Both the position numbers and the translations under genes were made by a program. The notes under the pieces are model-generated. The model did no database searches and had not been told where the DNA came from. It was given only the letters and a program-made list of their open reading frames with translations. Shown piece after piece: positions 16,617 through 39,393 of a DNA stretch of 64,000 nucleotides (position 1 is the stretch's first letter; each line of letters starts with the position of its first letter). The DNA is from an uncultured Chloroflexia bacterium (GTDB lineage Bacteria > Chloroflexota > Dehalococcoidia > DSTF01 > JALHUB01), in contig OY969814.1 of NCBI GenBank assembly GCA_963703345.1, positions 1,056,001 through 1,120,000 of the forward strand, given 5' to 3'.

Positions 16617-17402
16617 ATGGACCTTGGACTCACTGATCGGGTAGCGCTGGTCACCGGCGCGGGCCGTGGGATCGGCCGCCAGATTTGCGCGACGCTCGCC
16701 GGGGAGGGCGCGCGCGTGGCAGTAAACGACTTCTTCCAGGAGCGGGCGGAGGAGGTTGCCCAAGAGCTCCGAGAGGCAGGCGGTAAGGCTATCGGCGTGA
16801 CGGCAGATGTGACGGACTCCGATTCGGTACGACAAATGACCAAACAGGTGCTCGACGAATTCGGACAACTGGACATCCTGGTGAACAACGCGGGCATCCC
16901 GGTGTCTCCTGCCGAGGAATCAGGAGGGCCGTACTTCGCGCAGAGCACGCGGAACCAATGGGACAGAACGATGCACGTGATCATCTACGGGGTGATGAAC
17001 TGCAGCCGGGCGGTCATCGAGCACATGTGTGAGCGTCGGTGGGGCCGCGTCATCAGTATCATCTCCGACGCCGGGCGCGTCGGTGAGCCGCGCCTAGTGG
17101 CGTACTCTGCGGCTAAGGGGAGCGTGGTGGCCTTCACGAAGGCTCTGGCCAAGGAGGTTGGCCGGGATTGCGTCACGGTCAACTGCGTGTCGCCGGCCAC
17201 GACTGAGACTGAGGCAACCGCCGCGTGGATTCTCCCCCGAATAGAACAACTGGTACGTCAGTATCCGATGGGAAAGGGGCTAAACCGCCTCGGCCGTCCT
17301 GATGACATAGCCAACGCGGTAGCCTTTCTGGCTTCTGAGCGCGCGGAGTGGATCACCGGGCAGGTGCTGAGCGTCAACGGCGGGTACTCAATGGTGGACT
17401 AG
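16617..17402 (+). CDS. SDR oxidoreductase (FabG/BadH-like)
   Basis: TGAGRGIG, NNAG, SDAGRVG, YSAAK. Confidence 0.9.
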   Translation: MDLGLTDRVALVTGAGRGIGRQICATLAGEGARVAVNDFFQERAEEVAQELREAGGKAIGVTADVTDSDSVRQMTKQVLDEFGQLDILVNNAGIPVSPAEESGGPYFAQSTRNQWDRTMHVIIYGVMNCSRAVIEHMCERRWGRVISIISDAGRVGEPRLVAYSAAKGSVVAFTKALAKEVGRDCVTVNCVSPATTETEATAAWILPRIEQLVRQYPMGKGLNRLGRPDDIANAVAFLASERAEWITGQVLSVNGGYSMVD

Positions 17403-17419: not shown

Positions 17420-18648
17420 CGGCCCTTGTACTCCGCCGGTACGGTCGACTCGTCCGCGCCGTACGCGTGCGAGACCTGCCGGCAGAGCGAATTGACCAGC
17501 GCCCGTCCGTCCGAGGAGGCCGGCGTTGCGCCGATGAAGCGGACGACTCTCTCCGCCCCGGGATGCGCGGCGCGCGCTTCCTCCGCTGCTTTCGCCATCA
17601 GCGCCGATTTGCCTGAACCGGGCTCACCGAGCAAGGCCAGCGGACTATGATCGGTCCCCTCTATGTAGTTGCCGATGGCATTCAGGATGCTGGCCCAGCC
17701 GGTGAAGAATTCGGCGCGCTTCTCGCCAAAGGCATCATGCTCCGCGGTCTCCTTGTCCAGCGGGTCAGCCTCCAGCCGCGCGACCTCTTCCTCGATGATC
17801 CGGGAGAGGGCGTTGAACACATCATCGCATAGCTGAGGCACGTGGTCGGTGGTCACGCCGCTGCCTGTCCATCCCGCCTCGTAGTCGTGGATGTTGCCGG
17901 GGGGAAGACAGTGCAGCTTCTCCTTTAGGTCGTCCCCCCGCGCGGCGGCCTCGATATCCGGATTGCCGCTGGTGTCCAGATCCACGAAGTCCTTCGCGCT
18001 CAGATCCTGGGGCAGGTCCTTGATCGTCCGGAAGAAGCAGAAGACGCGCTCGGGGGCATCCGCAACCCGTAGCGCCCCCTGGGCGATCTCCTGCTCGGTG
18101 GCCGACGCCTCGTACTTCATGCGGTCGTAGGCCTCCAGCGGCATCCCCTGCACGGCTCGGAGCAGGATGGAACGGATCTCGCGTTCGACCACCTCCCATG
18201 CGTCGAAGTCCTCGTACTCTTCTCCACGTGGCTTCAAGCAGTACTCGGGCCGCACCGCGTTGTCGTCTCTCTCGTACCATTCCCTAAGGCGCTCCTGCTC
18301 CTCCGCGGAAATGCGCCGACAGATCTCTTCGAACTCCTCAGCGACGATCTGTGGCGGCAACGGGCGCCAGCCGTAGCGGTCACCCAGGAGCACGATGAAG
18401 TTGGGACGTGGCGTAATCCTCCGACACCGTTGGATCTCGCCCAGGCAGATGTTCATGGCCTGCTGGTCGAGGGCCGCCTCCTCGCTAACCCCCTAGCGCA
18501 GGTCGATCGCCTGGAACCGGGCGCCGTGCTGCATGCAGAGCTCGCGCAGCCTGGGGAAGGCCCGCTCCTGGAGTGCGTTGCGCTCCTCCTTGAGGTCGCC
18601 GAAGGTGGAGCTCACGAAGATGCGGAATGTCCTGCCTAGCCGTGCCAC
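17420..18648 (-). pseudogene. DUF4062 + NACHT/AAA NTPase (NWD1/TEP1-like), with an internal TAG and truncated 3' end
   Basis: GTG start gives RTFRIFVSSTFGDLKEERNAL...IDLR*GVSEE (TAG at 18493-18495 replaces the W of DLRWG), FIVLLGDRYGW, SATEQEI, Walker A GEPGSGKS, RFIGATP. Homology stops about 60 aa after Walker A. Confidence 0.85.
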
Positions 18649-18708: not shown

Positions 18709-20439
18709 CTAGGATCTCCCGCCCGACGGGGCGTCTGCCGGCATTCGGGTGACGAACGGGTTGACCCGCATGCGGCCCTTGCGGCCCGGCTGCGGGCAGT
18801 CGACGACCTGGCCGAGCCAGCTTCTCTCCGACGGGAATTGCTCAAAGCAGGCAGGGCAGCGCACCTTTGGCCCGTGCCCAAAGTCCGCCGCTGTCACAAT
18901 AATAGGCTCATACGCAATGCCCACCGGGTCGATGAAGTAAACGTTTCCACCCGCGTCGCCGCAGAACGTGAACGGAAGGCGCGGGTGGATAGCGACGCAA
19001 AACAGGGCACCGAGAAGTACCAGGGTCACCCGCTCCTTGCCCGTCGCCGCGTCCCAGATCTTCAGGGTCTCGTCCATGCTGGCCGAGACGGTGAAGGAGC
19101 CGTCTGGGCTAATCACGCAGGCGTTGACGTAACCGGTGTGGCCGCTGAGGGTCAGCCGCTCCCTGCCATTCGCCGCGTCCCAGATCTTGAGGGTCTTGTC
19201 GCTGCTCGCGGAGACGACGAAGGAGGAGTCAGCGCTTATCGCGCAGGCGGTGACCTCGTCGGTGTGGCCGGTGAGGGTCAGCCGCTCCTTGCCCGTCGCC
19301 GCGTCCCAGATCTTCAGGGTCTTGTCCATGCTGGCCGAGACGATGAAGGAGGAGTCGGGGCTGATCGCGCAGGCGAGGACGTGACCGGTGTGGCCGATGA
19401 GGGTCGGCAGCCCCTAGCCCGTCGCCGCGTCCCAGATCTTCAGGGTCTTGTCCATGCTGGCCGAGACGACGAAGGAGGAGTCGGGACTGATCGCGCAGGA
19501 GACCCCACCGGTGTGGCCGGTGAGGGTCAGCCGCTCCTTGCCCGTCGCCGCGTCCCAGATCTTCAGAGTTCCGTCGTGGCCCGCCGAGACGACGAAGGAG
19601 GAGTCGGGGCTGATCGCGCAGGCGCCGACCTGACCGGTGTGGCCGCTGAGGGTCGCCCGCTCCTTGCCCGTCGCCGCGTCCCAGATCTTCAGGGTCTCGT
19701 CCATGCTGGCCGAGACGACGAAGGAGGAGTCGGGGCTGATCGCGCAGGCCCAGACCTGACCGGTGTGGCCGCTGAGGGTCAGCCGCTCCTTGCCCGTCGC
19801 CGCGTCCCAGATCTTCAGGGTCTTGTCCAGGCTCGCCGAGACGGTGAAGGAGCCGTCTGGGCTAATCACGCAGGCGTTGACGTAACCGGTGTGGCCGCTG
19901 AGGGTCAGCCGCTTCTTGCCCGTCGTCGCGCCCCAGATCTTCAGGGTGTTGTCCCAGCTTCCGGAGACGACGAAGGAGCAGTCGGGGCTGATCGCGCAGG
20001 CGCTGACCCAATTGGTGTGGCCGGTGAGGGTCAGCCGCTCCCTGCCCTTCGCCGCGTCCCAGATCTTTAGGGTCTTGTCCCTGCTCGCGGAGACGACGAA
20101 GGAGGAGTCAGCGCTTATCGCGCAGGCGTCGACCGGAGCGGTGTGGCCGCTGAGGGTCGCCCGCTCCTTGCCCTTCGCCGCGTCCCAGATCTTCAGGGTT
20201 CCGTCGTGGCTCGCCGAGACGACGAAGGAGGAGTCGGGGCTGATCGCGCAGGCGTAGACCGGACCGGTGTGGCCGCTGAGGGTCAGCCGCTCCTTGCCCG
20301 TCGCCGCGTCCCAGATCTTCAGGGTCTTGTCCCAGCTCGCCGAGACGATGAAAGAGGAGTCGGGGCTGATCGCGCAGGCCAAGACACTACCGGTGTGGCC
20401 GGTGAGGGTCCAGGTTGGGAAAACACCACCGGTACTCAT
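18709..20439 (-). pseudogene. WD40-repeat protein (11 highly conserved repeats) with C-terminal Zn-ribbon; one in-frame TAG
   Basis: ORFs 19414-20439 and 18709-19329 are in the same frame, separated by TAG 19414-19416. AGGAGG RBS before ATG 20439. Tail CGDAGGNVYF...VRCPAC...CPQP. Confidence 0.88.
19027..20409 (-). repeat. Tandem array of eleven 126-bp coding repeats (one is 123 bp)
   Basis: Unit TL(S/T)GHTxxVxACAISPDSSFVVSASxDxTLKIWDAATGKERL; span 1383 bp = 11x126-3. Confidence 0.95.
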
Positions 20440-20611
20440 TGATCCCTCCTATCCCCAGGTGGGAACTTCCTCCGCGCCGACGGAAAGTCTTCAAGGAGAG
20501 AGACACGGTCCGAGGCGCGATGGAAAACTGTTGCCGCCCCTAGGCTCGGGCCAACGTTTGCCTAGCAGCCTGCTGGGGATCAGTTTCTGCCCGCCTGGAG
20601 GCTGCACGAGT

Positions 20612-20639
20612 ATTCTAGTCTTGATGGGGGACTTGTCAA
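20612..20639 (-). promoter_or_regulatory. Sigma70-type promoter for the WD40/DUF4062-NACHT operon
   Basis: Minus strand TTGACA-16 bp-TAGAAT, about 170 bp upstream of the WD40 start. Confidence 0.6.
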
Positions 20640-20993
20640 GTGAGAGAATATGCAGGCTGTGGAAACCGATTGCGCGAGATGGTGGGCGGAGGAAGCATTG
20701 GCTCGGTCTGCACGTAGACCTTGAGCAGTTAGAGGACGGGACCCACTATGTGCGCCCGTGGGCCGCCGGGGCGCTGGCATTAAGCACGCATGGTGTTACA
20801 GGCCGCTCAATCTAGGGCCTTAGATGGAGAGTACTCACGGATAGCCAGCTTGCCGTCAGCCACCCGTCACAACTGGCGCAATGCGGCGTAGCACTGCGCA
20901 GCCCCTGAGTTGGCGGCGCCGCTAATTAACCCAGCGTTCTGGACGCGCCGGTCGAGACTATTCGGCGATGTTCAGCCGTCAGCGGCGGAGGTG

Positions 20994-21206
20994 CTAGCCT
21001 TCCTCGTACTTGAACGAGAGCTTGATCCTCGCGCGGTAAAGGACCACCTTGTTCTTGTCGACAGTCATGTCGAGGTTCTCGACCTCCGCGATCCGTAGAT
21101 CGCGCAGAGTGCTGCTGGCCCGCTCGACCGCACTGCGGGCTGCCGCTTCCCACGACTCCGTGCTGGTTCCCACGAGTTCTATGATTTTGTAGGCACTCTC
21201 CGCCAT
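20994..21206 (-). CDS. Dodecin (flavin-binding protein)
   Basis: YKIIELVGTSTESWEAAARSAVERASSTLRDLRIAEV...YRARIKLSFK; GGAGGT RBS. Confidence 0.93.
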   Translation of the reverse strand: MAESAYKIIELVGTSTESWEAAARSAVERASSTLRDLRIAEVENLDMTVDKNKVVLYRARIKLSFKYEEG

Positions 21207-21244: not shown

Positions 21245-21324
21245 GTACGCCCGCCGCAGCGCTGGAGCAACTGCGTCATGGGGATGGTACGCTCGCCGCA
21301 GCGCTGGAGCAACTGCGTCATGGG
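21245..21324. repeat. Two-copy 42-bp tandem duplication, intergenic
   Basis: GTACGC(C/T)CGCCGCAGCGCTGGAGCAACTGCGTCATGGG at 21245 and 21287. Confidence 0.85.
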
Positions 21325-21666: not shown

Positions 21667-23808
21667 ATGCCCGAGAATTGGGGCCAGCAGTCTTCCGGCG
21701 ATGTAGCACCTGCGCGCGGCCACGCGGATCTCGATGAGGTCCTGGGCTCCTCCATCAGGTTTGCCTGCGAGATCCTCAAGAGTGATGCGGCGACGATAGC
21801 TCTACTTGATGAGAAGGGCCTTCTCGGGTTCCGCAGCCAGCACGGCCTATCACTGCAGTTGGGGGAGGGCTGGCACCGCCATCCCGCGGAGAGCGTAATA
21901 GGCATCGTGTTCCGGACCGGCCGGCCACACGTCATCTCCGATCTACTTGCTGAGAGGGAGTACGCTGGGGGGCCACTGGCCCGCGAGAGGCTACGTAGCG
22001 TCATAATACTGCCGTTGAAGACTGGGGAGGCCGTGACGGGCTGCCTTTGCGTTGGAGACAGGAGGCCGGGCCATTTCTCACCAATCGATGTGCGGCTGGC
22101 AGGCCTCTTCGCCGATCAGGTGGCGATGTCGATTGAGAACGCCCGCCTGTACCAGGCAGAACGGCGGGAGCGCCAAACAACGGAAGCGCTGCTAGACGTG
22201 CTGACAACCGCCACCTCCAGTCTGAGTTTGAGGAAGGTAATGGCCAGTGTATGCGAGACGGTGATTAGCCTCAGCGTCGGCGAGCGCTGCAGCATCTTCC
22301 TGATGGACGCCGAACATCGCCGTTTGGAGCCCGTCATGTCTCTGGGCACTCGGGACGAGGAACTATGGCAGAAGTTCCTTCAACCGCCCGCCGGGGTGAG
22401 GCGTGACCCGGCAGAGCACCGCTTCTGGCAGGCCGCAGCCAACCAGGAAGGCCCCGTAGTCATCGAGGACGCGGAGAATTCACCGATTCTGCCTCGCTGG
22501 TGGGTGGAGACCTTCGCTCTGAAGTCACTCGTCCAGTACCCGCTGCGGGTCAAGGACAAGACGATCGGGGTGATGACGGTGGACACCTCCCGTAACCGGG
22601 TTAACTTCCCTCAGGAGGAAGTCGAGACGCTCGCTGCTGTCGCCAAACAGGCGGCGATCACAATTGAGAACGCTCAGTTATACGAGAGGCTGGAGGAGCA
22701 GGCAACCACCGATCCCTTGACTGGCCTCTGCAATCACCGACAGATTCATGAGCGGTTGGAGGAGGAGTTCGCGCGAGCCTCGCGCAGCGGCCGGCCGCTC
22801 GCTGTCATGATGCTGGACATGGACAACCTCAAATACTTCAACGACAGCTGTGGCCATCTTGTTGGTGATGAGGTACTTAGGTTCGTCGCCGGTCTTTTCG
22901 TCAAAACGCTGCGGATTTCCGACGTCCTCGGCCGGTACGGCGGGGACGAATTCCTGGCCGTGTTGCCGGAGACCGGCCGCGCGCTGGCAAAGCAGTTGGG
23001 GCAGCGCATAGTGTCCCTTCTTGCCGAACATCCATTCTCACCGGCCGACTCGGCGCAGCAGGTGCCCGTTGGAGTTAGCATCGGCGTAGCCTGCTACCCT
23101 GAGGATGGCGCCGAGGCTCGGAAGCTTCTAGCCCTCGCCGACGCAGCGCTTTACGAGGCGAAACGGTTGGGTGGGGGACGAGTCATATCGGCGCACAGCG
23201 ATATCAGGGAGCAGGAAGCGTCATCGGGCATGGGTTTTGGCTTCCTGCGGAGTTTGCTCAACGCTTTGGCGTACAAGGACCCATCCACGAGAAAGCACTG
23301 CGATGACAATGTCCGTTACGCAGACCGGCTGGCAGAGCAGTTACATCTCCCCGCGGAGGCCAAGGACTCACTGCGCAAAGCCGCTCTCCTGCACGATGTG
23401 GGGAAGATCGCGATACCCGATAGTACGCTCCTCAAGCCGGGACCTCTGGACAGTGGGGAGTGGGAGGTCATGCGCCAGCACGTGCAGTTCGGGGAGGCTA
23501 TCGTAAAAGGCATCGCCGAGATCTCTGACGCTATCGAGCCCGTGGCCACTCATCACGAACGTTACGACGGCGCCGGGTACCCGAAGGGGCTGAAAGGGGA
23601 GGAGATTCCTCTACTAGGACGGCTCCTGGCGGTAGTGGACGCCTATTCGGCGATGACCCTGGACCGTCCCTACCGCAAGGCGTTAAGCCACGAAGAGGCG
23701 AAGGAGGAACTGCGGAAAGGGTCGGGCAGCCAGTTCGACCCCGCGGTGGCGGAGGCGTTCCTAGCGGTAATCGAGGCAGAAGAGCAGGCGGGGGCAAAGG
23801 CAGCATGA
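21667..23808 (+). CDS. GAF-GAF-GGDEF-HD-GYP protein (diguanylate cyclase/phosphodiesterase)
   Basis: IENARLY and IENAQLY GAF ends, TDPLTGL, RYGGDEF, LLHDVGK, HHERYDGAGYP. Confidence 0.92.
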   Translation: MPENWGQQSSGDVAPARGHADLDEVLGSSIRFACEILKSDAATIALLDEKGLLGFRSQHGLSLQLGEGWHRHPAESVIGIVFRTGRPHVISDLLAEREYAGGPLARERLRSVIILPLKTGEAVTGCLCVGDRRPGHFSPIDVRLAGLFADQVAMSIENARLYQAERRERQTTEALLDVLTTATSSLSLRKVMASVCETVISLSVGERCSIFLMDAEHRRLEPVMSLGTRDEELWQKFLQPPAGVRRDPAEHRFWQAAANQEGPVVIEDAENSPILPRWWVETFALKSLVQYPLRVKDKTIGVMTVDTSRNRVNFPQEEVETLAAVAKQAAITIENAQLYERLEEQATTDPLTGLCNHRQIHERLEEEFARASRSGRPLAVMMLDMDNLKYFNDSCGHLVGDEVLRFVAGLFVKTLRISDVLGRYGGDEFLAVLPETGRALAKQLGQRIVSLLAEHPFSPADSAQQVPVGVSIGVACYPEDGAEARKLLALADAALYEAKRLGGGRVISAHSDIREQEASSGMGFGFLRSLLNALAYKDPSTRKHCDDNVRYADRLAEQLHLPAEAKDSLRKAALLHDVGKIAIPDSTLLKPGPLDSGEWEVMRQHVQFGEAIVKGIAEISDAIEPVATHHERYDGAGYPKGLKGEEIPLLGRLLAVVDAYSAMTLDRPYRKALSHEEAKEELRKGSGSQFDPAVAEAFLAVIEAEEQAGAKAA

Positions 23809-23890
23809 CGGGCTGTGAACTGCCAAGAAAGCCTATTGGCGTCCTTCAAAGCGTGCGCTGGGAGCGGCCTGTCTCCCTAACGAGAGAACG

Positions 23891-25705
23891 ATGCTCAAAG
23901 TGAGACCATCTCGAAATCAAGCCCTGCTAACGAGTGTGGCGTTGCTGGCGCTAGTAGTCAGCGTGGTAGCGCTCGCAGCCTGGCGTGACCAGCATGCTAA
24001 GGAAGCGGCCCGCTCGGTCGATCGCCACTCTGCAGTGGCTGCCGCCATGGACGATGCCCGCGTCCAGACCTCCCTCCTGGCCGCCCAGATTGCGTCCTCC
24101 ACGCTCTCAGGCAACGCGACCCCCATCGCAGACCTGTACCCTCAAGCCGCCGCGGCGATAGACGGAGATATGCAGGTGGCTGAAGCCGGGCTATCCGCCA
24201 TGGGCGAAATGGACGAATTCGCCGCACTGAACGCGGCGGATTCAGAGATGGAGCAGTTAACGCAAGATCCAGACGTGGTCGCCCTTGTCACGTCCCCGAA
24301 CAGTGGAGACAAGACGGAGTTGGGGCGGCAGTACTATTCACGGATCTGGCCCGGGGTCGAGAGTGTGATGGCCGAGCTGCAGCAACTTGCCAGCGGAGAG
24401 CGTGACAAACTGGCAGCCGAGCAAGCGACCGCGAGCCGCGTCTCGGACCACACATTCGGACTGTTGACCGGGCTTAGCCTGCTCGCCTTTCTCGGGGGAG
24501 CGGCGATGCTGATCAGGCTTGTCCCGCTGGTGGTGCGCCCCCTTTCTGTCCGGGACCGCAACAAGATGGCCAGCCAGCGCATCCGGGTGGAGCAGGCACT
24601 GAAGCGCCAGGCAGCCACGGACAGACTGACCGGACTTCGTAGCCACCGTTCTCTACACGAAGAGCTGGCCAAGGAGGTGGAACGCAGTCTGCGCTACGGT
24701 CGGCCCGTGACCATCATGATGATGGACATCGATGGATTCAGGCTCTTCAATGACACTTATGGTTACCAAGAGGGAGACCGCGTGTTGAAGCAGGTGGCGA
24801 AGGTGCTCGAACGCGAATTTGGATCCGTCGATATCGTCGGTCGCTATGGCGGTGATGAGTTCGTGGCTATCCTGCCAGAGACCGACCGTGACGAGGGTGT
24901 CGCGCGCGCGAACCGGCTCTTTGAAGCGCTCTCCCACGAACGTGTCCAGCCTCGCTTCGGGGAGAGCGTGCCTCTCGTGCTGAGCATGGGTATCGCCGTC
25001 TGTCCCGACGATAGCAGGCACCGGGAAGAATTGATCGCTTACGCAGACGCGTCGCTGACGGAGGCGAAGCAAGTCTCCGGAAACGCCCTGGTGGTCGGGC
25101 AACGGGAGCCAGGCGAAATCATCACCAGAGAACGCTCGCCGTTCGGGGTCCTTGATGCTCTCGTGAGGGCGGTCGACAGAAAGGATCGCTACACGCGTCG
25201 GCACTCGCAGCAGAACGCTGAGTTCGCTGTGGAGCTTGGGAAGGCGGTAGGGCTAACCGAGGGTGCCGTGAGCGCACTGCGTATCGCGGGCCTCCTGCAC
25301 GATGTCGGCAAGATCGGAGTCCCGGATGACATACTGAAGAAACCCGGCCCGCTATCTGACGAGGAACGGGCTCTGATGCGCGAGCATGTGGTGTTGAGCA
25401 ACCTTATCGTTCATGGTATCCCAAACCTGGAGGACGTGTCCGACGCGGTCTACTGCCACCACGAACGCTGGGACGGTACGGGCTATCCTCGGGGCTTGAA
25501 GGGGGCAGAGATACCTCTCCCAGGTCGCATAATGGCGCTTGTAGATGCATACTCGGCAATGATCCTCGATCGGCCGTACCGAAAGGCCCTAACGAATGAG
25601 GGAGCCACAGCAGAGTTGAGGCGCAACGCCGGCACCCAATTCGACCCAGAGCTTGTCGAGCCCTTCATCCAACTACTGGAATCCAGCGAAGCGGCGGCCG
25701 CCTAG
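23891..25705 (+). CDS. Membrane-anchored sensor GGDEF-HD-GYP protein
   Basis: Two hydrophobic segments around a helical sensor domain, TDRLTGL, RYGGDEF, LLHDVGK, HHERWDGTGYP. Confidence 0.92.
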   Translation: MLKVRPSRNQALLTSVALLALVVSVVALAAWRDQHAKEAARSVDRHSAVAAAMDDARVQTSLLAAQIASSTLSGNATPIADLYPQAAAAIDGDMQVAEAGLSAMGEMDEFAALNAADSEMEQLTQDPDVVALVTSPNSGDKTELGRQYYSRIWPGVESVMAELQQLASGERDKLAAEQATASRVSDHTFGLLTGLSLLAFLGGAAMLIRLVPLVVRPLSVRDRNKMASQRIRVEQALKRQAATDRLTGLRSHRSLHEELAKEVERSLRYGRPVTIMMMDIDGFRLFNDTYGYQEGDRVLKQVAKVLEREFGSVDIVGRYGGDEFVAILPETDRDEGVARANRLFEALSHERVQPRFGESVPLVLSMGIAVCPDDSRHREELIAYADASLTEAKQVSGNALVVGQREPGEIITRERSPFGVLDALVRAVDRKDRYTRRHSQQNAEFAVELGKAVGLTEGAVSALRIAGLLHDVGKIGVPDDILKKPGPLSDEERALMREHVVLSNLIVHGIPNLEDVSDAVYCHHERWDGTGYPRGLKGAEIPLPGRIMALVDAYSAMILDRPYRKALTNEGATAELRRNAGTQFDPELVEPFIQLLESSEAAAA

Positions 25706-25756
25706 GTTATCCTCGGCGCGTGGAAGACATCTCGCGTCGAAATGAGATTCGAAAAC

Positions 25757-25800
25757 TGGAGGAAGTGAGGGGTTCGAACCCTCGACTCCCGGATTCGCTG
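25757..25800 (-). pseudogene. tRNA-like 3' half (isotype uncertain, possibly Arg)
   Basis: Minus strand CAGCGAATCCGGGAGTC-GAGGG-TTCGAAC-CCCTC-ACTTCCTCCA: perfect T-arm and CCA end, acceptor strand 1 nt short, no 5' half. Confidence 0.6.
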
Positions 25801-30184: not shown

Positions 30185-30510
30185 GCTCACTCTCCAAGCT
30201 TAGGAATTGCCCATTTTTTCGCGCAAGACGCCGATTATGAAGGTGCCCCGTCGGGGGAGCCCGGAGGTAAACAGGCTCGTTGCGGCCAGCGGCGGCCAAG
30301 AGCAAGAATCACGCCAGCACACCCCAGCGGGGCCATAGCAGGAATGGGGCAGAGAAGGCACGCGCGGATTGGCGTCACGATGTTCGGGTCGTGTGTGTTG
30401 AAGGGCGTAACGGTGAGCGCTAGATCTGCCAGTACACTTCGTAAAGCCACAGGGGTTCTCGAAGCCGCGCAGCGCACCGTAGCGTCTTGCAGCTTGATGG
30501 GCCGCGCATC

Positions 30511-33500
30511 ATGATGCAATCGAAGATTCGCCAAGGTCAGGGGGAAACTGGCTTGAACAGCGGCAGCCGGGGTTTTCGTAGCGCCATCCGCACCATCTGG
30601 GGCCGCCGCCACAAGCAGGGGGTCGAGCCGGCACGGAGCGGCGACGACCTGCCACCGCTGCGCGCCGAGCTGCTCAGCCTCGAGCAGCTTAAGGGCCACG
30701 CGAAAGAGCTTGCGGCGAGGCACGCCGTCGAGGAGAAGCGGGGGCCGGATCTTCTGCTCCCACAGCTCAATGAGAACGAGCGTGTCCTCCTCAATGCCTA
30801 CCGGCTCATGACGGACGAGGGGGAAGAACAGGTTCGTGTCACTCCGGCCGCCGAGTGGCTGCGCGACAACTTCTACCTTATCGAGGAGCAAATACGGGCC
30901 GCGCGGGCCCACCTGCCCAAGGGGTACAGTCAGGAGCTCCCCCGCCTGCTGGGCGGCACCTCGGCCGGCTACCCCGTCGTCTACGCCATCGCCTTAGAGC
31001 TTGTCTCCCACGGAGACGGGCGCGTCGACGCGGGCAGTCTGAGCGCTTTCGTCTCTGCCTACCAGGCAATCAGACCGCTAAAGTTGGGCGAGCTTTGGGC
31101 GATTCCGATCATGCTGCGCCTGGCGCTGATTAACAACCTTCGCCGCGTCGCGGCTCGCATCGCCGCCGACCGACTCGCGCGCAACCAGGCGAACCATTGG
31201 GCCGACCGGATGATCGAGGTGGCGGGGAAAGAGCCGACGAGCCTGATCCTCACCCTAGCGGACATGGCGCGGTCCCGGCCGCAGATGTCCAGTGCCTTTG
31301 TAGCTGAACTCGCCCGCCGGCTCCAGGGCCAAGGCCCCGCGCAGGCGATGCCGCTTACCTGGCTGGAGCAACGGCTCACCGAGATGAGCCTGACGATCGA
31401 GCGGCTGATCCAGCTTGAGGGCCAGCAGCAAGCAGAGGGCCAGGTTTCGATCAGCAACAGTATCGGCAGCCTCCGCTTCCTCGACGCCACCGACTGGCGT
31501 GAGTTCGTGGAGACGATGAGTGTCGTCGAGGACACGCTCCGTGACGACCCGGCCGGCGTCTACAGTCAGATGGACTTCGCCACGCGCGACCGCTACCGGC
31601 ACGTCGTCGAACGCGCGGCCCGCCGAGGCGGCCTCGCGGAGCGAGAGGTGGCGCAGAAAGCGGTGGACTTGGCAGCGGCCGCGCGGACGCAGGCCGGCTC
31701 CCAGGACCGGACGGCCCACGTCGGCTACTACCTGATCGACCGGGGCGTCCCGCTTTTCGAGCGCGCCGCTCAGGTCCGCCTCTCGCCCCTTGAGCGACTT
31801 CGGCGAGCGGCAGGCCGCATACCCCTGCTCCTCTACCTCGGTTCGATCTGGCTGATCGCCGCGACCGTAACGTTCGCGGTGCTGGTGCAGGCCATGGCCT
31901 TCGGTACCCGGGGCTGGGGGCTGCTACCGCTCGGCGCGCTCATCCTCCTTTGCGCCAGCTCGCTCGGGATCGCAGTCGTGAACTGGCTGGCGACGATTCT
32001 CGTCAAGCCCAACACGCTGCCGCGGCTCGACTTCTCGCGGGGAATACCTTCCGACCTGCGCACGCTCGTCGTCGTGCCCATGCTCCTTACCGAGCCGGAG
32101 GACATCGAAGATCTGCTTGGCGCGCTGGAGGTGCGTTTTCTGGCGAACCACGACAATAACCTCTACTTCGGACTGCTGACGGACTTCCGCGACGCGCCGG
32201 CGGAGGTGATGCCGGAAGACGGGGAACTGCTCCGTCTGGCGCGCGAGGGAATCGAGACGCTCAACCGCAAGTACCAGGACGACCGCGATGACGCCTTCTT
32301 CCTCTTCCATCGACCGCGCCGCTGGAACCCTCAAGAGCGCGTGTGGATGGGCCACGAACGCAAGCGGGGGAAGCTGAGTGACCTCAACGCCCTCCTGCGT
32401 GGTGCGGAGGACGGCCGATTCTCGCTGATCGTCGGCGAACGGTCGGTGCTGCCGGCCGTCAAATACGTGCTCACGCTCGACGCCGACACGGAGCTCCCTC
32501 GCGACGCCGCCCGCCTCCTCGTCGGCACGCTCAGCCACCCTCTCAACCGACCGCGTTACGATGAGGCGAAGGGGCGCATCTGCGAAGGCTACGGCATCCT
32601 GCAACCGCGCCTATCGCCGGCGATGGCGAACGTCAGCCGCTCACCGTTCAGCCGCCTGTTCGGCGGTGAGCCCGGCATCGACCCCTATACACGCGCCGTC
32701 TCCGACGTCTACCAGGACGTCTTCCGCGAGGGGTCTTTCACCGGCAAGGGAATCTTCGACGTGGACGCTTTCGAGCGGGCGCTCGGCGGCCGCTTCCCCG
32801 AGAACCTGATCCTCAGCCACGACCTGCTTGAAGGCTGCTATGCGCGGTCCGCGCTTGTCACTGACGTTCAACTCCAAGAGAGCTACCCGACGCGCTTCAG
32901 TGCCGATGTGACCCGCCGCCACCGCTGGATCCGCGGTGACTGGCAGATCGCCCGTTGGCTGTTGCCGTTTGCGCCCGATGCCAGCGGCCGTTCGGCGCGC
33001 AACCCGCTCTCGGCGCTCTCGCGCTGGAAGATATTCGACAATCTACGGCGGAGTCTACTGCCCGGTGCGCTCGTGCTCCTCCTGCTCCTTGGGTGGACAA
33101 CTCTTGGGCCGGCTTGGTTCTGGACATGCATTGTCGCCGGCATCGTCCTTCTCGGTCCGCTTCTGGCCTTCCTTGGCGACATCGCCGCCAAGCCAACGGG
33201 TCTGCCGATCCGCTTGCACCTCAGGGCCGCCGCCGCGTCGGGCGCCAGGCGAATGGCCCAGAGCGCGTTCGGCCTGGCGGTCCTGCCCTACGAAGCGGCT
33301 TTCAGCCTGGACGCCGTGCTCAAGACTTGGTGGCGGATGCTAGTCACGCGGCGCGGTCTCCTTAAGTGGACAACGTCAAGCGACGCCAGGCGGAGCGCCA
33401 GCAGGCGGCTCGCCGAGTTCTTGCGAATGATGTGGGTAGCGCCGGCCATAGCTCTCGCGGTGATGGGCTACCTCTCGGTTGAGCGGCCTATGGCGCTCCT

Positions 33501-36500
33501 GCCTGCGGGGCCGCTTCTCGCTGCCTGGGTGGCCTCGCCGGTCATTGCCTGGTGGGTAAGCCGACCGATCGAGCAGCGGGAGCCGCACCTCTCGCCCGTG
33601 CAAACGAACTTCCTGCGCAAGCTGGCCCGCGAGACGTGGCGCTTCTTCGAGACGTTCGTAGGCCCTGAAGACAACTGGCTGCCGCCCGACAGCTATCAGG
33701 AGGAGCCGATCGAGACGGTTGCCCACCGGACCTCGCCCACGAACATGGGACTTTCACTCCTCGCCAACCTGGCTGCGTACGACTTCGGTTATATATCCGC
33801 CCGCCGCCTGATCGAGCGGACGACGCGCGCACTCCAGACGATGGAGGGGCTGGAGCGGAACCGCGGCCACTTCTACAACTGGTACGACACGATCACGCTG
33901 CGGCCGCTTGCGCCGCTCTATGTTTCCACGGTTGACAGCGGCAACTTGGCCGCCCACCTACTCACGCTGAGGCCGGGCTTGCAGGAGTTGGCGGATAGCC
34001 AGGTTCTGCCACCTCAGGCTCTTGGCGGCCTCCGCGACACGCTCGGCCTCCTGGCCGGCGCAGCACGGGCTGCCCGCTCGCCCGAGACGCCAGATAGTGA
34101 CAGCGGCCTCACCGGAATGCTCGACGAGATCGCCGGGTTAATCGACACGCCGGCCAGCCCTCCCGTCGGCCTCTACGCCTGCCGCTCACTCCTCGATCAG
34201 TTGATGACGGCGGCTGGGCGCATCGCTGGCGACTTGGGCCCCGAGCCCGATGCCGAGGCGGAGTGGTGGGCTCGCTCGTTCAAGGAGCAGTGCGAGGACT
34301 GGCTCGGCGACCTCGACCACCTAGCGCCCTGGGCGGCACTGTCGCCTCCGCCCGACGCCCTAGTCGATAACGGGGCTACCGAAGCCGCGGCGTCCGAGGC
34401 GTTGTTCGATGCGATCTGCCGGCTCGAGGAGGGCCCCACGCTCCGCGAAACCGCCGACTTCAGTGAGACGCTCATCCCGGCGCTCGACGCCAGGCTTGCC
34501 GCCCTCACGGTCGACGGCACGCGACCTGCCCACGAGTGGCTGGCCCGTTTACGGGGCGCAGTGAGCGAGGCGAGCAGCCACGCAGCTGACCGGTTGGAAA
34601 CCATCGAGCGGCTCGGCGGGCTCAGCTACAGGCTGGCCGACGCGGACTACGACTTCCTGACGGACCATTCGCGCAACCTGTTCGCCATCGGCTACAACGT
34701 CGCCGAGCGGCGGCGCGACCCGAGCTACTATGATTTGCTGGCCTCAGAGGCGCGGCTTGCCAGCTTCGTCAGCATCGCGCAACGACACCTGTCGCAGGAT
34801 CACTGGTTCGCGCTTGGTCGCCTCGTCACCACCTCCGGCGCCGACCCCGCTCTCCTCTCCTGGGGCGGCTCCATGTTCGAATACCTGATGCCGCTCGTCG
34901 TCATGCCGACATACGGCGGCACTGTGCTTGACGGGACCTATAAGGCCATCGTCCGTCGTCAGATCGGGTACGGCGCGCAGCGGGGCGTCCCTTGGGGCAT
35001 CTCGGAGTCCGGCTACAATACGACGGACGCCCACCTCAACTACCAGTACCGCGCCTTCGGCGTGCCGGGGCTCGGCTTCAAGCGAGGTCTCGCGGAGGAC
35101 CTCGTCGTCGCGCCCTACGCGACGGTGATGGCGCTGATGGTCTCACCGAAAGAGGCATGCGCAAATCTTGAGCGCCTCGCCGACCTCGGCGCGGAGGGCC
35201 GCTACGGCCTCTACGAGGCGATCGACTACACATCCTCGCGCCTGCCGCGCGGCGAGACGTTTGCGCTCGTGCGGTCGTTCATGCCACACCACGAGGGTAT
35301 GAGCTTCCTCTCTCTCGCCTACGCGCTCCTCGGCCGGCCGATGCAGCGCCGCTTCCTCTCCGAGCCGATCTTTCGGGCGACAGAGGGTCTGCTGCAGGAG
35401 CGCGTGCCTAAGGTCGCACCTTTCTACCCAAACGCCGCCGAGACGTCCGGGCTGCAGCAGCGCGCCGGTGAGTACCAGGCCCTCCTTCGCGTGTTCAGCA
35501 ACCCCAACTCCGCCTCGCCGGAGGTGCACCTGCTTTCCAACGGCAGCTACAACGTTATGGTGACCAATGCCGGGGGCGGCTATAGCCGTTGGCGCGACCT
35601 CGCGGTCACGCGCTGGCAAGAGGATGCGACTCGCGATTGCCACGGCACGTTCTGCTACCTCCGCGACCTGACGAGCGGCGAGGTATGGTCCACGGCCTAC
35701 CAGCCGACGCTGAGGCAGCCGAAGACCTACGACGCGATCTTCTCCCAGGCGCGCGCCGAGTACCGCCGCCGCGATGGCGAGATCGACACGCATACGGAGA
35801 TCGCCGTCTCGCCGGAGGACGACGTCGAGATCAGACGCATCAGGATAACGAATCGCTCCGGCACGCGGCGCACTATCGAGGTGACGAGCTATGCGGAAGT
35901 AGTCATGGCGCCGCCGGCCGCCGACGCCGCCCACCCGGCCTTCAGCAACCTCTTCGTCCAGACGGAGATCGTCCCGTCGCACGACGCCGTCCTTTGCTCG
36001 CGGCGGCCTCGCTCGCCCGGCGAGCCGACGCCCTGGATGGTCCATTTGATGGACGCGAGAGCGACATCCTCCATCGGCGAGACATCGTTCGAGACGGACC
36101 GGCTGCGCTTCATCGGGCGGGGCCGCTCCCTCGCCGACCCTGAAGCAATGCAAGACACTGGCCGCCTTTCCGGTAGCCAGGGCGCCGTGCTTGACCCGAT
36201 CGTCTCAGTCCGCCGCCAGGTTACGGTGGGTCCGGATGAGACGGTCTGGGTGAACGTGGTGACCGGTGTCGGCGAGACGCGCCAGCGGGCGATGGCGCTC
36301 GCAGGCAAGTACCACGACCGCCGCCTGGCCGACCGTGTCTTCGATCTGGCGATGACCCACCGGCAGGTCGTCCTCCGCCAGCTCAACGCGACCGAGTCCG
36401 ACGCCCAACTCTACGGCCGCCTCGCTAGCTCGATCGTCTACGCCAACGCGGGCCGCCGAGCGCCGGCGAACGTGCTCGCTCGCAACCGGCGCCCGCAGTC

Positions 36501-39393
36501 CGGACTCTGGGGCTTCGGCATCTCCGGCGACTTGCCGATCGTACTTCTGCGCATAGGCGACCGAACGAAGATCGAACTCGTGCGGCAGCTCGTCCAGGCG
36601 CACGCGTACTGGCGCCTCACCGGGCTCGCAGTCGACCTTGTGATCTGGAACGAGGAGCCATCCGGCTACCGACAGGAGCTGCACGAGGAGATCATGGGAA
36701 TCGTCTCCGCCGGAACTGAGTCGCACGTCATTGACCGGCCGGGTGGCATCTTCGTCCGGCACGCCGACCAAATGTCGGAGGAGGATGGGATCCTCCAGCA
36801 GACTGTCGCCCGCGTTGTGATCGTCGATACTGCCGGGACGCTGGCCGAGCAGATCGAGCGCCGCCGCCGCGTCCAGCAAGCTGTGCCGGCGCTCACGCCG
36901 GCCGATGGCATCGTGCCCGAGCGCGAGCGCGCCGTCGAGCTTCCAAGCCGCGACCTCCTGTTCTCGAATGGCCTCGGCGGTTTTGCGCCGGACGGGCGCG
37001 AGTACGTCATCACTCTGCGGCCGGGCGAGACGACGCCAGCGCCCTGGGCGAACGTGCTGGCGAACCCGCAGTTCGGCGCCGTGGTTACAGAGAGCGGGGG
37101 TGGCTACACCTGGGGTGAGAACGCCCACGAACTCCGTCTGACTCCCTGGTACAATGATCCGCTCACGGACACTAGCGGAGAGGCTTTCTACGTTCGTGAC
37201 GAAGAGACCGGTCGCTACTGGTCGCCGACGCCCCTACCAGCGCGCGGCGTGACCGCCTACACGTGCCGCCACGGCTTCGGGTACACGGTTTTCGAGCACG
37301 CGGAGGACGGCGTCGTCTCCGAGCTGGCCGAGTACGTTGCGCTCGACGCGACGGTGAAGCTGATGGCGCTTACGCTTCGCAACGAGTCGGGCCGGGCGCG
37401 GCGCCTCTCGGCGACGGGCTACGTCGAGTGGGTGCTCGGCGAGCAGCGGTCAAAGTCGCTCCTCCACGTCGTTACGGAGATCGACCCGAAGAGCGGCGCC
37501 GTCTTCGCCCGCAATCCCTACAACGGCGACTTCCCCGGCCGCGTCGCCTTCTTCGACGTGGACGAACCGCACTGCACCGTTACCTGTAATCGCGCCGAGT
37601 TCATCGGCCGCAACGGCCTGCCAGGCCAGCCCTCGGCAATGAAAAGGGCTCGTCTATCCGGCCAGGTTGGCGCTGGGCTGGATCCCTGCGCCGCGCTGCA
37701 GGTCCAGGTCGACCTGGCCGACGGCGAGGAACGGGAGATCGTCTTCGTCCTCGGCGTCGGGCGCGACGAGGAGGAGGCGCGCGACGTCGTGCAGCGCTTC
37801 CGCGGCCTCGGGCCCGCGCACGCGGCGCTGGAGGCGGTCAAGGCGCACTGGGAGCGTGTCCTTGGCGCCGTCCGCGTCGAGACACCGGAGCCAACCGTCA
37901 ACATCCTCGCCAATGGCTGGCTTCTCTATCAGACAATCGCTTGCCGCCTCTGGGCGCGGACCGGCTTGTATCAGTCGGGTGGCGCCTTTGGCTTCCGCGA
38001 CCAGCTCCAGGACGTGATGGCGCTTGTCCACGCCCAGCCGCTACTCATCCGCGACCACCTGCTGCGCTGCGCGGCCCGCCAGTTCCGCGAGGGGGACGTC
38101 CAGCACTGGTGGCACCCGCCGACAGGGCGTGGCGTGCGAACGCGCTGCTCCGACGACTTGCTCTGGTTGCCACTGGCGACGGCCCGCTACGTCCTCGCGA
38201 CGGGCGATACCGGCGTCCTCGACGAGCACGTCGCCTATATCGAGGGGCGGCCGCTCAACCCGGGCGAGGACTCCTACTATGACCTGCCGGCGCGGTCGGA
38301 GGAGACGGGCACCCTTTACGAGCACTGCGTCAGGGCGATCGAGCGGGGAACGCGGCTCGGCCGACACGGGCTGCCGTTGATCGGCTCCGGCGATTGGAAC
38401 GACAGCATGAACACGGTCGGCCTGGGCGGTAAGGGCGAGAGCGTCTGGCTGGCGTTTTTCCTCCAGCATGTTCTTACACAGTTCGCCGAAGTCGCGCGCC
38501 TCCACGGCGATGCCGCCTTCGCCGAGCGTTCAGAGTCGGAGGCCGCGGCACTCCGCCAGTCGGCAGAGATGCACGCCTGGGACGGCGATTGGTACCTTCG
38601 CGCCTACTTCGACGCCGGCGAGCCGCTTGGCTCTGCTGGCAGCCCGGAGTGCCGCATCGACTCGATACCTCAGAGCTGGTCTGTGATATCCGGTGCCGGC
38701 GACCCGCAGCGCCCTCGCGTCGCCATGGAGTCTGTCGACCGGCTGCTCGTGCGCCGCGATCAAACCCTCATCCAGCTCCTTGACCCGCCGTTTGACAAGT
38801 CCGAACTGAATCCCGGCTACATCAAGGGGTATCCGCCGGGCGTGAGGGAGAACGGTGGCCAGTACACGCATGCCGCGGTCTGGGCGATCATGGCGTTCGC
38901 GGCGCTGGGCGACGGCCGCCGCGCCTGGGAGTTGCTCTCGCTGATCAGCCCGCTCAACCACGCGTCGGCTGCAGAGAAAGCGGCGACCTATCGTGTCGAG
39001 CCGTACGTTGTCGCCGCCGATGTCCACGCGCTGCCGCCGCGCACGGGCGAAGGCGGCTGGACCTGGTACACGGGTGCCGCCGGCTGGATGTACCGGCTGA
39101 TCGTCGAGTCGCTGCTCGGCCTTCGCTTGGAGGTAGATCGGCTGTCCTTCACGCCTTGCCTGCCGGCCGACTGGCAGTCGTTCAGCCTCAGGTACCGTTA
39201 CCGGGAGACGACCTACGCGATCACCATTCGACGAGCGGGCGAGGGCGATGGAGTGTGCGTAGTCGTAGACGGCGTTGAGCAGCACGAGACGTCGATCCGG
39301 CTCGTTGATGACAACCGGCCGCACACGGCCGAGGTCGAAATCGGCCGGGGCGACGGAAGTAGCCACACCATCGCCCGCTTCGACAATCGTTGA
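30511..39393 (+). CDS. ndvB: Cyclic beta-1,2-glucan synthase (GT84 + glucoamylase-like + GH94 phosphorylase domains)
   Basis: About 2960 aa: EWLRDNFYLIEEQI, LDADT, SHDLLEG, RRHRWIRGDWQ, TM helices, HRTSPTNMG, YYDLLASEARL, YQSGGAFGFRDQLQD, GDWND, ENGGQYTHAA. Confidence 0.93.
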   Translation: MMQSKIRQGQGETGLNSGSRGFRSAIRTIWGRRHKQGVEPARSGDDLPPLRAELLSLEQLKGHAKELAARHAVEEKRGPDLLLPQLNENERVLLNAYRLMTDEGEEQVRVTPAAEWLRDNFYLIEEQIRAARAHLPKGYSQELPRLLGGTSAGYPVVYAIALELVSHGDGRVDAGSLSAFVSAYQAIRPLKLGELWAIPIMLRLALINNLRRVAARIAADRLARNQANHWADRMIEVAGKEPTSLILTLADMARSRPQMSSAFVAELARRLQGQGPAQAMPLTWLEQRLTEMSLTIERLIQLEGQQQAEGQVSISNSIGSLRFLDATDWREFVETMSVVEDTLRDDPAGVYSQMDFATRDRYRHVVERAARRGGLAEREVAQKAVDLAAAARTQAGSQDRTAHVGYYLIDRGVPLFERAAQVRLSPLERLRRAAGRIPLLLYLGSIWLIAATVTFAVLVQAMAFGTRGWGLLPLGALILLCASSLGIAVVNWLATILVKPNTLPRLDFSRGIPSDLRTLVVVPMLLTEPEDIEDLLGALEVRFLANHDNNLYFGLLTDFRDAPAEVMPEDGELLRLAREGIETLNRKYQDDRDDAFFLFHRPRRWNPQERVWMGHERKRGKLSDLNALLRGAEDGRFSLIVGERSVLPAVKYVLTLDADTELPRDAARLLVGTLSHPLNRPRYDEAKGRICEGYGILQPRLSPAMANVSRSPFSRLFGGEPGIDPYTRAVSDVYQDVFREGSFTGKGIFDVDAFERALGGRFPENLILSHDLLEGCYARSALVTDVQLQESYPTRFSADVTRRHRWIRGDWQIARWLLPFAPDASGRSARNPLSALSRWKIFDNLRRSLLPGALVLLLLLGWTTLGPAWFWTCIVAGIVLLGPLLAFLGDIAAKPTGLPIRLHLRAAAASGARRMAQSAFGLAVLPYEAAFSLDAVLKTWWRMLVTRRGLLKWTTSSDARRSASRRLAEFLRMMWVAPAIALAVMGYLSVERPMALLPAGPLLAAWVASPVIAWWVSRPIEQREPHLSPVQTNFLRKLARETWRFFETFVGPEDNWLPPDSYQEEPIETVAHRTSPTNMGLSLLANLAAYDFGYISARRLIERTTRALQTMEGLERNRGHFYNWYDTITLRPLAPLYVSTVDSGNLAAHLLTLRPGLQELADSQVLPPQALGGLRDTLGLLAGAARAARSPETPDSDSGLTGMLDEIAGLIDTPASPPVGLYACRSLLDQLMTAAGRIAGDLGPEPDAEAEWWARSFKEQCEDWLGDLDHLAPWAALSPPPDALVDNGATEAAASEALFDAICRLEEGPTLRETADFSETLIPALDARLAALTVDGTRPAHEWLARLRGAVSEASSHAADRLETIERLGGLSYRLADADYDFLTDHSRNLFAIGYNVAERRRDPSYYDLLASEARLASFVSIAQRHLSQDHWFALGRLVTTSGADPALLSWGGSMFEYLMPLVVMPTYGGTVLDGTYKAIVRRQIGYGAQRGVPWGISESGYNTTDAHLNYQYRAFGVPGLGFKRGLAEDLVVAPYATVMALMVSPKEACANLERLADLGAEGRYGLYEAIDYTSSRLPRGETFALVRSFMPHHEGMSFLSLAYALLGRPMQRRFLSEPIFRATEGLLQERVPKVAPFYPNAAETSGLQQRAGEYQALLRVFSNPNSASPEVHLLSNGSYNVMVTNAGGGYSRWRDLAVTRWQEDATRDCHGTFCYLRDLTSGEVWSTAYQPTLRQPKTYDAIFSQARAEYRRRDGEIDTHTEIAVSPEDDVEIRRIRITNRSGTRRTIEVTSYAEVVMAPPAADAAHPAFSNLFVQTEIVPSHDAVLCSRRPRSPGEPTPWMVHLMDARATSSIGETSFETDRLRFIGRGRSLADPEAMQDTGRLSGSQGAVLDPIVSVRRQVTVGPDETVWVNVVTGVGETRQRAMALAGKYHDRRLADRVFDLAMTHRQVVLRQLNATESDAQLYGRLASSIVYANAGRRAPANVLARNRRPQSGLWGFGISGDLPIVLLRIGDRTKIELVRQLVQAHAYWRLTGLAVDLVIWNEEPSGYRQELHEEIMGIVSAGTESHVIDRPGGIFVRHADQMSEEDGILQQTVARVVIVDTAGTLAEQIERRRRVQQAVPALTPADGIVPERERAVELPSRDLLFSNGLGGFAPDGREYVITLRPGETTPAPWANVLANPQFGAVVTESGGGYTWGENAHELRLTPWYNDPLTDTSGEAFYVRDEETGRYWSPTPLPARGVTAYTCRHGFGYTVFEHAEDGVVSELAEYVALDATVKLMALTLRNESGRARRLSATGYVEWVLGEQRSKSLLHVVTEIDPKSGAVFARNPYNGDFPGRVAFFDVDEPHCTVTCNRAEFIGRNGLPGQPSAMKRARLSGQVGAGLDPCAALQVQVDLADGEEREIVFVLGVGRDEEEARDVVQRFRGLGPAHAALEAVKAHWERVLGAVRVETPEPTVNILANGWLLYQTIACRLWARTGLYQSGGAFGFRDQLQDVMALVHAQPLLIRDHLLRCAARQFREGDVQHWWHPPTGRGVRTRCSDDLLWLPLATARYVLATGDTGVLDEHVAYIEGRPLNPGEDSYYDLPARSEETGTLYEHCVRAIERGTRLGRHGLPLIGSGDWNDSMNTVGLGGKGESVWLAFFLQHVLTQFAEVARLHGDAAFAERSESEAAALRQSAEMHAWDGDWYLRAYFDAGEPLGSAGSPECRIDSIPQSWSVISGAGDPQRPRVAMESVDRLLVRRDQTLIQLLDPPFDKSELNPGYIKGYPPGVRENGGQYTHAAVWAIMAFAALGDGRRAWELLSLISPLNHASAAEKAATYRVEPYVVAADVHALPPRTGEGGWTWYTGAAGWMYRLIVESLLGLRLEVDRLSFTPCLPADWQSFSLRYRYRETTYAITIRRAGEGDGVCVVVDGVEQHETSIRLVDDNRPHTAEVEIGRGDGSSHTIARFDNR

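Follow-up and report, generated by a model that had tools for sequence, protein, structure and literature searches.

A window of 64,000 nucleotides (the whole stretch of DNA analysed here, from an uncultured Chloroflexia bacterium) contains an array of WD40 repeats that are nearly identical except at a few positions. The initial annotation took it for a receptor diversified by recombination, in the manner of the fungal HET-E protein. The locus therefore raises the question of what shaped this array and to what kind of protein it belongs.

Organization of the WD40 array

The array (19027..20409, minus strand) comprises 11 units of 42 codons running from 20409 to 19027, with the exception of unit 8, which has 41 codons (123 bp); the H-S-D-W tetrad is whole in all 11. 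TRF identified a 126-bp unit in 11.0 copies (19022-20410). Throughout the text, column 1 is the T of TLSGHT and each unit has 42 columns. Pairwise DNA identity among the units ranges from 81 to 97% (mean 87%), which bears out the near-identity in DNA noted in the initial annotation; the post-GHT and x-D-x motifs given there (11 of each) and the four blocks recurring in non-adjacent repeats were all found exactly as listed. At the protein level the mean identity is 78%, with at least 70% in 48 of 55 pairs.

The ORF starts with an ATG at 20439, 10 codons ahead of repeat 1, and no NACHT domain is in frame with the array. The genome, a 2.28-Mb single contig that is 96% complete, contains no second WD40 array. 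An AlphaFold model of units 1-8 reached a pLDDT of 91.9, and the closest solved folds to this model are 8-bladed propellers.

Positive selection at hypervariable codons

The columns of highest entropy among the 11 repeats are 8, 10, 26 and 28 of the 42. Together with column 7 they account for 48% of all pairwise nucleotide differences, and the combination of residues at the four hot sites is distinct in each of the 11 repeats. The hot columns flank an invariant Val (column 9) and an invariant Asp (column 27). In HET-E, the selected codons given in Paoletti 2007 (PMC1805685) are 7, 9, 25 and 27, placed around the conserved codons 8 and 26; columns 8, 10, 26 and 28 correspond to these four with identical spacing, shifted by one. 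Columns 8, 10 and 26 also correspond to R1-2, R1 and D-1, the hot spots of the WD40 top face in Wu 2012. Mapped on the propeller model, columns 7-8 end the d-a loop, column 10 starts strand a, and columns 26-28 lie in the b-c turn. The assignment to the top face combines the DSSP positions of the model with Paoletti 2007 and Wu 2012 and is not measured geometry.

At columns 8, 10 and 26 pN is 0.68, versus a scaffold pS of 0.115. Comparison of the codon models M1a and M2a gave LRT values of 35.5 and 46.2 on two trees, with an omega of ~7-9 for the selected class and M2a posteriors of at least 0.98 at columns 7, 8, 10 and 26; column 28 was not called. In 54 neutral runs, simulated with either 4 or 10 recombining segments, the LRT rose to 10.2 at most, versus 36 observed. 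The expectation that top-face sites equivalent to those of HET-E are under diversifying selection has thus been confirmed by the per-site dN/dS: the codons at propeller top-face positions were diversified under positive selection.

The same pattern might be ascribed to a decaying gene in which constraint is relaxed or mutation locally elevated, e.g. through a diversity-generating retroelement. In favour of this, the array gene is a pseudogene (see below), WD40 proteins throughout the family are variable at identical positions, and much of the gain in likelihood is recovered with a neutral fast (hypermutable) class. This class, however, fits 5.5 lnL worse than selection, a margin that was reached in none of 97 neutral-hypermutable simulations. 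Moreover, columns 6, 11, 35 and 41, which are as free as the hot ones in divergent relatives, are invariant in the array, and synonymous sites beside the hot codons are almost invariant (1 variant in 54 at columns 6, 9, 11, 27 and 29). The array was also rejected as the target of a diversity-generating retroelement, as the genome contains neither a reverse transcriptase (no PF00078 match) nor a template, i.e. a second DNA copy of the region. We regard this explanation as extremely improbable and retain positive selection for the present array. In other arrays the selection LRT was 16.0 (L044), 16.3 (L012 sensor B), 2.5 (L043) and 0 (L012 sensor A; the L numbers denote related loci, see below), and in all four selection is not separable from hypermutability.

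Homogenization and probable recombination among the repeats

The repeats were homogenized recently: their scaffold pS is 0.12-0.14, versus 0.39-0.42 for the NACHT gene against the NACHT genes of L012 and L014, and in the repeat tree the 11 units group with one repeat of L015, apart from the repeats of L012, L014 and L043.

Recombination has probably shaped the array. The closest repeat pairs (5-11, 3-10, 2-7 and 1-9) stand at unequal offsets, which a single block duplication would not produce. Exact tracts of 79, 71 and 62 nt are shared between repeats. Clean chimeras are seen in repeats 11 and 7; repeat 11 tracks repeat 5 through 7 codons before switching to repeat 6 for another 3. Tests for gene conversion, which the initial annotation had proposed, came out divided: a PHI-type test was significant when all sites were used (p=0.008-0.03) and lost significance once the hot codons were removed (p=0.10-0.37), and the incompatibility (homoplasy) of the scaffold was 0.30 versus 0.15 expected (P=0.054). 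A triplet max-descent chimera test, dominated by overall similarity, gave p=0.17. Gene conversion within the array has, in sum, moderate support.

The sensor gene of L015 contains ~150 nt that are 92-95% identical to the array repeats, with different hot residues. This repeat has 2 synonymous differences in 33 from the array, as against 25 in 49 in the common tail (p=1e-5). Such a contrast between scaffold and tail suggests that blades were exchanged between lineages, unless the metagenome contig L015 is chimeric.

Could the array instead have arisen by recent amplification from one blade, with selection at the hot codons and a few unit duplications or deletions, and without continuing HET-E-like conversion? 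Low dS among repeats is read in this way for such arrays in Hu 2017 (PMC5587647) and Pereira & Lupas 2022 (PMC9218822), the recombination tests are not significant on the scaffold alone, and the genome is devoid of a second array that could act as donor. On the other hand, simple amplification is at odds with the differing offsets of the closest pairs, with the two clean chimeras, with the PHI result on all sites and with the occurrence of an array-type scaffold repeat in the divergent gene of L015. We consider it rather unlikely; continuing HET-E-like conversion is likely, albeit not separated from recent amplification by these data. Of the recombination-driven receptor diversification proposed initially, selection at the hot sites stands, recombination is moderately supported, and a working receptor with an active mechanism is unsupported, since the gene is broken, there is no NACHT in cis and no second array could serve as exchange partner.

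The mosaic order of the repeats and the defects of repeat 8 (see below) could also be blamed on assembly errors. Chimeric HIC repeats are known to arise in short-read assemblies (PMC12222747); the array is spanned by no contig of the sequencing runs compared, with 19364-19687 uncovered among the pieces of run X1 listed, and the best placement of a 126-nt X1 contig, at 19438-19559, has 10 differences and 3 gaps. Nevertheless, the genome was assembled into a single 2.28-Mb contig with 96% completeness, and the longest exact repeat within the array is only 79 nt. Furthermore, each of the 13 X1 contigs retained at the 97% threshold matches to at least 99%, without a single differing letter; the stretches covered include the repeat-11 junction, spanned with 0 differences, and the TAG at 18494. 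This agreement is not independent, because X1 may be the source sample. Assembly error is, in our opinion, very unlikely, and we treat the mosaic as genuine. The 126-nt X1 contig, whose depth of 2.7 equals that of the strain and which is missing at the 97% threshold, is possibly a variant repeat in the population.

Degeneration of the sensor and core genes

The sequence suggests that operon and sensor gene start within 20431..20730 (minus strand), where an upstream/promoter region, a GGAGG ribosome-binding site and the ATG at 20439 are located. Contigs of runs X3 and X4 match 20431-20730 (26 and 22 differing letters, respectively, in ~300) and then diverge to other sequence, the X4 contig extending 241 nt beyond 20431. 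From this departure we infer an in-frame deletion with its junction at 20410..20430 (minus strand), which removed the N-terminal docking helices (~80 codons). The distance from the Met to the first repeat is 10 aa here, versus a median of 89 aa in relatives (53 proteins), and the A2 profile, used as evidence for the loss of these helices, has no match in this genome.

Repeat 8 carries a one-codon deletion and a garbled end with an in-frame TAG (19414-19416, minus strand), which is uncovered by X1 contig pieces among those listed. Stop-codon read-through was considered and rejected: the 54 ARAGORN calls include no tRNA with a CTA anticodon, and at 18494, the other TAG of the locus, other runs have TGG.

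The array is followed by a degenerate last blade and a C-terminal zinc-ribbon-like domain (18709..19026, minus strand; CPAC at 18858, second knuckle at 18798). The fourth Cys of the zinc ribbon is replaced by Arg; this Cys is kept in 27 of 27 pattern-matching relatives. ESM Atlas gave a weak zinc-ribbon lead (0.91, family on 32% of members). The zinc-ribbon-like domain (18750-18930 of the window) also ends related sensors (L012, L014 and many relatives) and approximately a third of the cores, and it may be a homotypic interaction module.

The adjacent gene (17426..18648, minus strand) is a broken DUF4062 (TeTIR, TIR-like)-NACHT core gene (Pfam DUF4062 and AAA_16), 74% identical to the intact L012 protein. 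It has a TAG at codon 52 (18493-18495) within the RWG motif, where other runs have TGG, retains Walker A at 17628, and is truncated ahead of Walker B at ~17426, beyond which X2 and X4 contigs continue. At the truncation edge lies a short-chain dehydrogenase gene (16617..17402, plus strand; Pfam adh_short_C2), which is outside the system. Searches of the genome with tblastn, blastn and the RyR and A2 profiles found none of the missing operon parts elsewhere. The sensor and core copy in this genome is a relic that has lost its function.

A different fate can be imagined, in which the gene, after the deletion and the stop, is still expressed as a novel stand-alone propeller of 8 blades (19414-20439) with a role of its own. 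The ribosome-binding site and the ATG are intact, and the ORF holds exactly 8 units, modelled with high confidence as 8 blades (see above). Yet unit 8 is devoid of one strand-a residue and has a garbled end, the docking helices are gone and the partner gene is destroyed. We find this proposal barely credible as compared with decay of the operon.

The locus was not found in three genomes of the same genus and one of the same family (92-97% complete), which fits a horizontally acquired island, nor was the tail of the array gene found in 400 genomes of the class. In DNA the locus is 77% identical to a Dehalococcoidia locus, a weak indication of the class of its host, since the locus is mobile. 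It is likely that this immune operon was horizontally acquired. PADLOC gave no match for the system, and NCBIfam only weak matches below the cutoff.

Intact relatives encode a core and separate sensors

In intact relatives the core is accompanied by one to four separate WD40 genes, which start with the helices missing from the relic and often adjoin an RyR-domain ATPase gene. The L012 operon has the order RyR-domain ATPase, WD40 sensor A, DUF4062-NACHT and WD40 sensor B, and the relic is the counterpart of its sensor A and core. L013 combines one core with four genes that have a common N-terminal domain, an RyR ATPase and a DUF4062-NACHT-TPR gene. At seven loci from two phyla (L012, L013, L014, L042, L077, L079 and L081; L079 and L081 are near-identical) the core ends at a common motif beside standalone sensors.

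Core homologues were scored for the best 120 of 1029, all proteins of at most 1472 aa, and 95 of the 120 carried the split motif. Sixty-two of these end no more than 15 aa after the motif, 32 end after a zinc ribbon and 1 continues; fused forms are under-counted here, because the NACHT search was limited to proteins of at most 1472 aa. Source names of the core homologues include Acidobacteriota, Ktedonobacterales, Actinomycetota and Deltaproteobacteria. The RWG motif, TAG-broken in this genome, is present in 107 of the 120 core relatives, and an S-x-TE-x-E motif, which we do not equate with TEP1 E1008, in 104.

The first 110 residues of the sensor gave 61 matches. Among the best 56, all of them free of a P-loop motif, 54 have the matching helices at the N-terminus. 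Fused proteins also exist, with four matches, three of which had a NACHT annotation. In one fused protein, P0062, the alignment of the core extends to ~residue 832 and the sensor starts at 845; the two halves are contiguous, and the split point is therefore precise. It is fixed across the family. Among 33 loci examined, the sensors are, by our reading, standalone in 23, fused in 8 and unclear in 2, kin among these loci not being independent. Genome surveys detected the docking-helix domain in this phylum in 3 of 401 genomes, and in the phylum of L013 in 11 of 301.

An intact fused NTPase-WD40 gene is located at L044 (7002-10490, G590). Its 11 repeats are 89% identical, with repeats 5-7 recurring as 9-11 in an apparent block duplication, and omega is ~7 at columns 7, 8, 10 and 26.

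Homologues of the RyR ATPase flank L012, L013, L015, L016, L077 and L085. A P-loop ATPase of ~900 aa with C-terminal RyR domain(s) is encoded at 2616-5312 of L012, 4678-7623 of L013, 6243-8975 of L015, 5739-8999 of L016 and 15467-18139 of L077; it has no match in PADLOC or NCBIfam. TrkA_N-RyR, SLATT and TIR genes occur near the RyR ATPase or the system. Ahead of the ATPase gene in L012 (1184-2518) and L015 (4901-6184) there is an unannotated gene whose first codons are similar to those of the DUF4062-NACHT gene, with 75% identity in DNA across 108 nt.

Predicted docking and a model of action

As the proteins of this genome are broken, the complex was modelled with those of L012. The prediction for the core and sensor halves scored 0.84, the best of 3 controls scoring 0.00; the runs had at least 87% of contacts in common, and partner pLDDT was at least 77. 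The mark applied to this score is passed by 116 of 157 solved and by 2 of 215 mismatched pairs; the two parts of a split domain, however, are prone to pass such a test through their likeness to the intact fold. In the model, the core contributes its last helices to the interface (residues ~711-766) and the sensor its first (residues ~13-47). WD40 sensors are thus predicted to dock onto the core. Pfam does not recognize the docking helices (APAF1_C at E=0.039 in 1 of 8 members), and we assign them as HD2/APAF1_C-like from their position within the fused protein.

The N-terminal domain of the L012 core matches the human TEP1 TeTIR structure 11gz (E=2.4e-14). DUF4062/TeTIR domains are described as TIR-like NADases, antiphage in one bacterial system, although three isolated prokaryotic TeTIR domains had no NADase activity (10.64898/2026.09.21.753143, 10.64898/2026.05.01.722283).

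Based on these observations, we suggest that the array is probably the broken sensor gene of a split TEP1/NWD1-type NLR operon, composed of a DUF4062-NACHT core and separate docking WD40 sensors. By analogy with APAF-1-type STANDs, each WD40 protein would use its N-terminal helices to complete the last helical domain of the core in trans, and a ligand bound at the variable top face might release autoinhibition. NACHT oligomerization would follow, and the clustered TIR-like domains could then cleave NAD+, so that the infected cell would be killed or arrested through NAD+ depletion. The putative ligand is most likely a phage protein. Specificity might be set at two levels: (i) within a sensor, by amplification, exchange and selection of repeats, and (ii) by the gain or loss of whole sensor genes. 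Bacteria with intact relatives are likely to vary recognition by both repeat shuffling and the swapping of whole sensors.

A broader proposal, toward which we incline only slightly, is that two-part NLRs of this kind are widespread in prokaryotes, uniting one TIR-like NADase-NACHT core with interchangeable WD40 sensors, HET-E-like shuffling, trade of repeats between genomes and an RyR ATPase as regular partner.

Comparison with known receptors

The array resembles those of the fungal HNWD/NWD NLRs (HET-E and HET-D of Podospora anserina; PMC1805685), with WD40 units of 42 aa/126 bp that are more than 80% identical in DNA. As in HET-E, there are 11 repeats, a NACHT partner and four variable codons with omega above 1 flanking invariant V and D, although the fourth of them, column 28, is in the present array marked by entropy and not by M2a. 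In contrast to HNWD proteins, the system is prokaryotic, its effector is DUF4062/TeTIR and not HET, and the copy found here is a pseudogene. Effector, NACHT and WD40 do not form one polypeptide, the sensor and NACHT being encoded by separate genes, and the relatives are split as well. The P. anserina repeats form a pool of ~70 over 10 loci, whereas this genome has one array, and no exchange among several loci of one genome is seen. The repeat shared with the gene of another organism at L015 is suggestive of exchange beyond the genome. The locus is outside the HNWD family, yet its array behaves like HNWD arrays.

High internal identity is likewise a feature of repetitive prokaryotic WD40 proteins (PMC5587647, PMC9218822) and of the HIC repeats of bacterial NLRs (10.1101/2020.01.06.895854), which also have in common with our array a low dS, diversity at hot spots and frequent disruption by stops. 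The array shows the internal identity of at least 0.7, the tetrads and the hot spots that define such proteins in Hu 2017, judged here pairwise and not by the six-of-eight rule. In the part of Dyrka 2020 (10.1101/2020.01.06.895854) compared, a fungal-type regime in bacteria is no more than suggested, and the term 'positive selection' is missing from the portion of Hu 2017 (PMC5587647) compared; here the array was tested per site. The portions of Hu 2017, Pereira & Lupas 2022 and Dyrka 2020 considered do not describe a split multi-sensor operon. The repeat pattern is, in conclusion, already known in prokaryotes (Hu 2017, Dyrka 2020), and the split architecture seems to be the new part.

TEP1, NWD1 and NWD2 (10.64898/2026.09.21.753143, 10.64898/2026.05.01.722283) share with our system a DUF4062/TeTIR domain with an RWG loop immediately before NACHT (supported here by Pfam and, for L012, by the match to 11gz), followed by an NWD1-type winged helix and then a helical domain and WD40. 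However, the members described are single-chain, whereas here the chain is cut inside the helical domain and there are several sensor genes per core. A C-terminal WD40 or TPR region in the same chain is not the rule, as 94 of the 95 scored relatives (at most 1472 aa) end at or just after the split. The words 'split' and 'operon' are missing from the portion of the TeTIR preprint text compared.

Stand-alone algal proteins with APAF1_C and WD40 (Kwantes & Wichard 2022, PMC8891106) are similar to the sensors in combining a helical domain with WD40 and no nucleotide-binding domain. Complementation in trans is considered in that paper, but no solitary NB-ARC partner is reported in Ulva in the part covered; in our case, by contrast, a NACHT gene without a sensor lies next to the sensor gene and terminates at the position complementary to it. 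Antiviral STANDs (Avs, bNACHT; PMC13581612) also consist of a STAND ATPase, an N-terminal effector and a repeat sensor, and their distribution is also patchy. They differ in being single-chain, mostly with TPR sensors; the system described here has no PADLOC match and its antiphage role is putative. No such split system is described in the parts of Kaur 2020, Kaur 2021 and the 2026 STAND survey (PMC13581612) that were compared, and a search of the main texts of largely open-access papers returned no description of a split core with a multi-sensor operon.

The repeat pattern alone would constitute a further prokaryotic example of a known fungal mechanism, with per-site statistics; the split architecture is weightier. 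To our knowledge, sensor and ATPase are in one chain in the NLR/STAND receptors described so far. If our reading is true, a fixed split with several sensors per core would make recognition modules exchangeable at the protein level, and signalling from sensor to ATPase could be tested by mixing subunits. The intact relatives would then provide tractable bacterial models for TEP1/NWD1, the activating ligands of which are unknown.

Other features of the window

A near-perfect 42-nt tandem duplication (21245-21324) is located just upstream of a small minus-strand ORF (~20983-21204), the product of which resembles dodecin; this ORF has no NCBIfam match. A tRNA-end-like sequence of ~41 nt (25756-25795) has ~10 further copies in the genome, with 88-97% identity, two of which overlap or abut ARAGORN tRNA-Lys calls. 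These are possibly att-site remnants or a dispersed repeat. The window also encodes a 2968-aa GH94/glucoamylase/GT2 protein (30487-39393), presumably similar to cyclic beta-glucan synthase, and, at 21667-25705, a GAF-GGDEF-HD gene, after which a second ORF carries comparable motifs.
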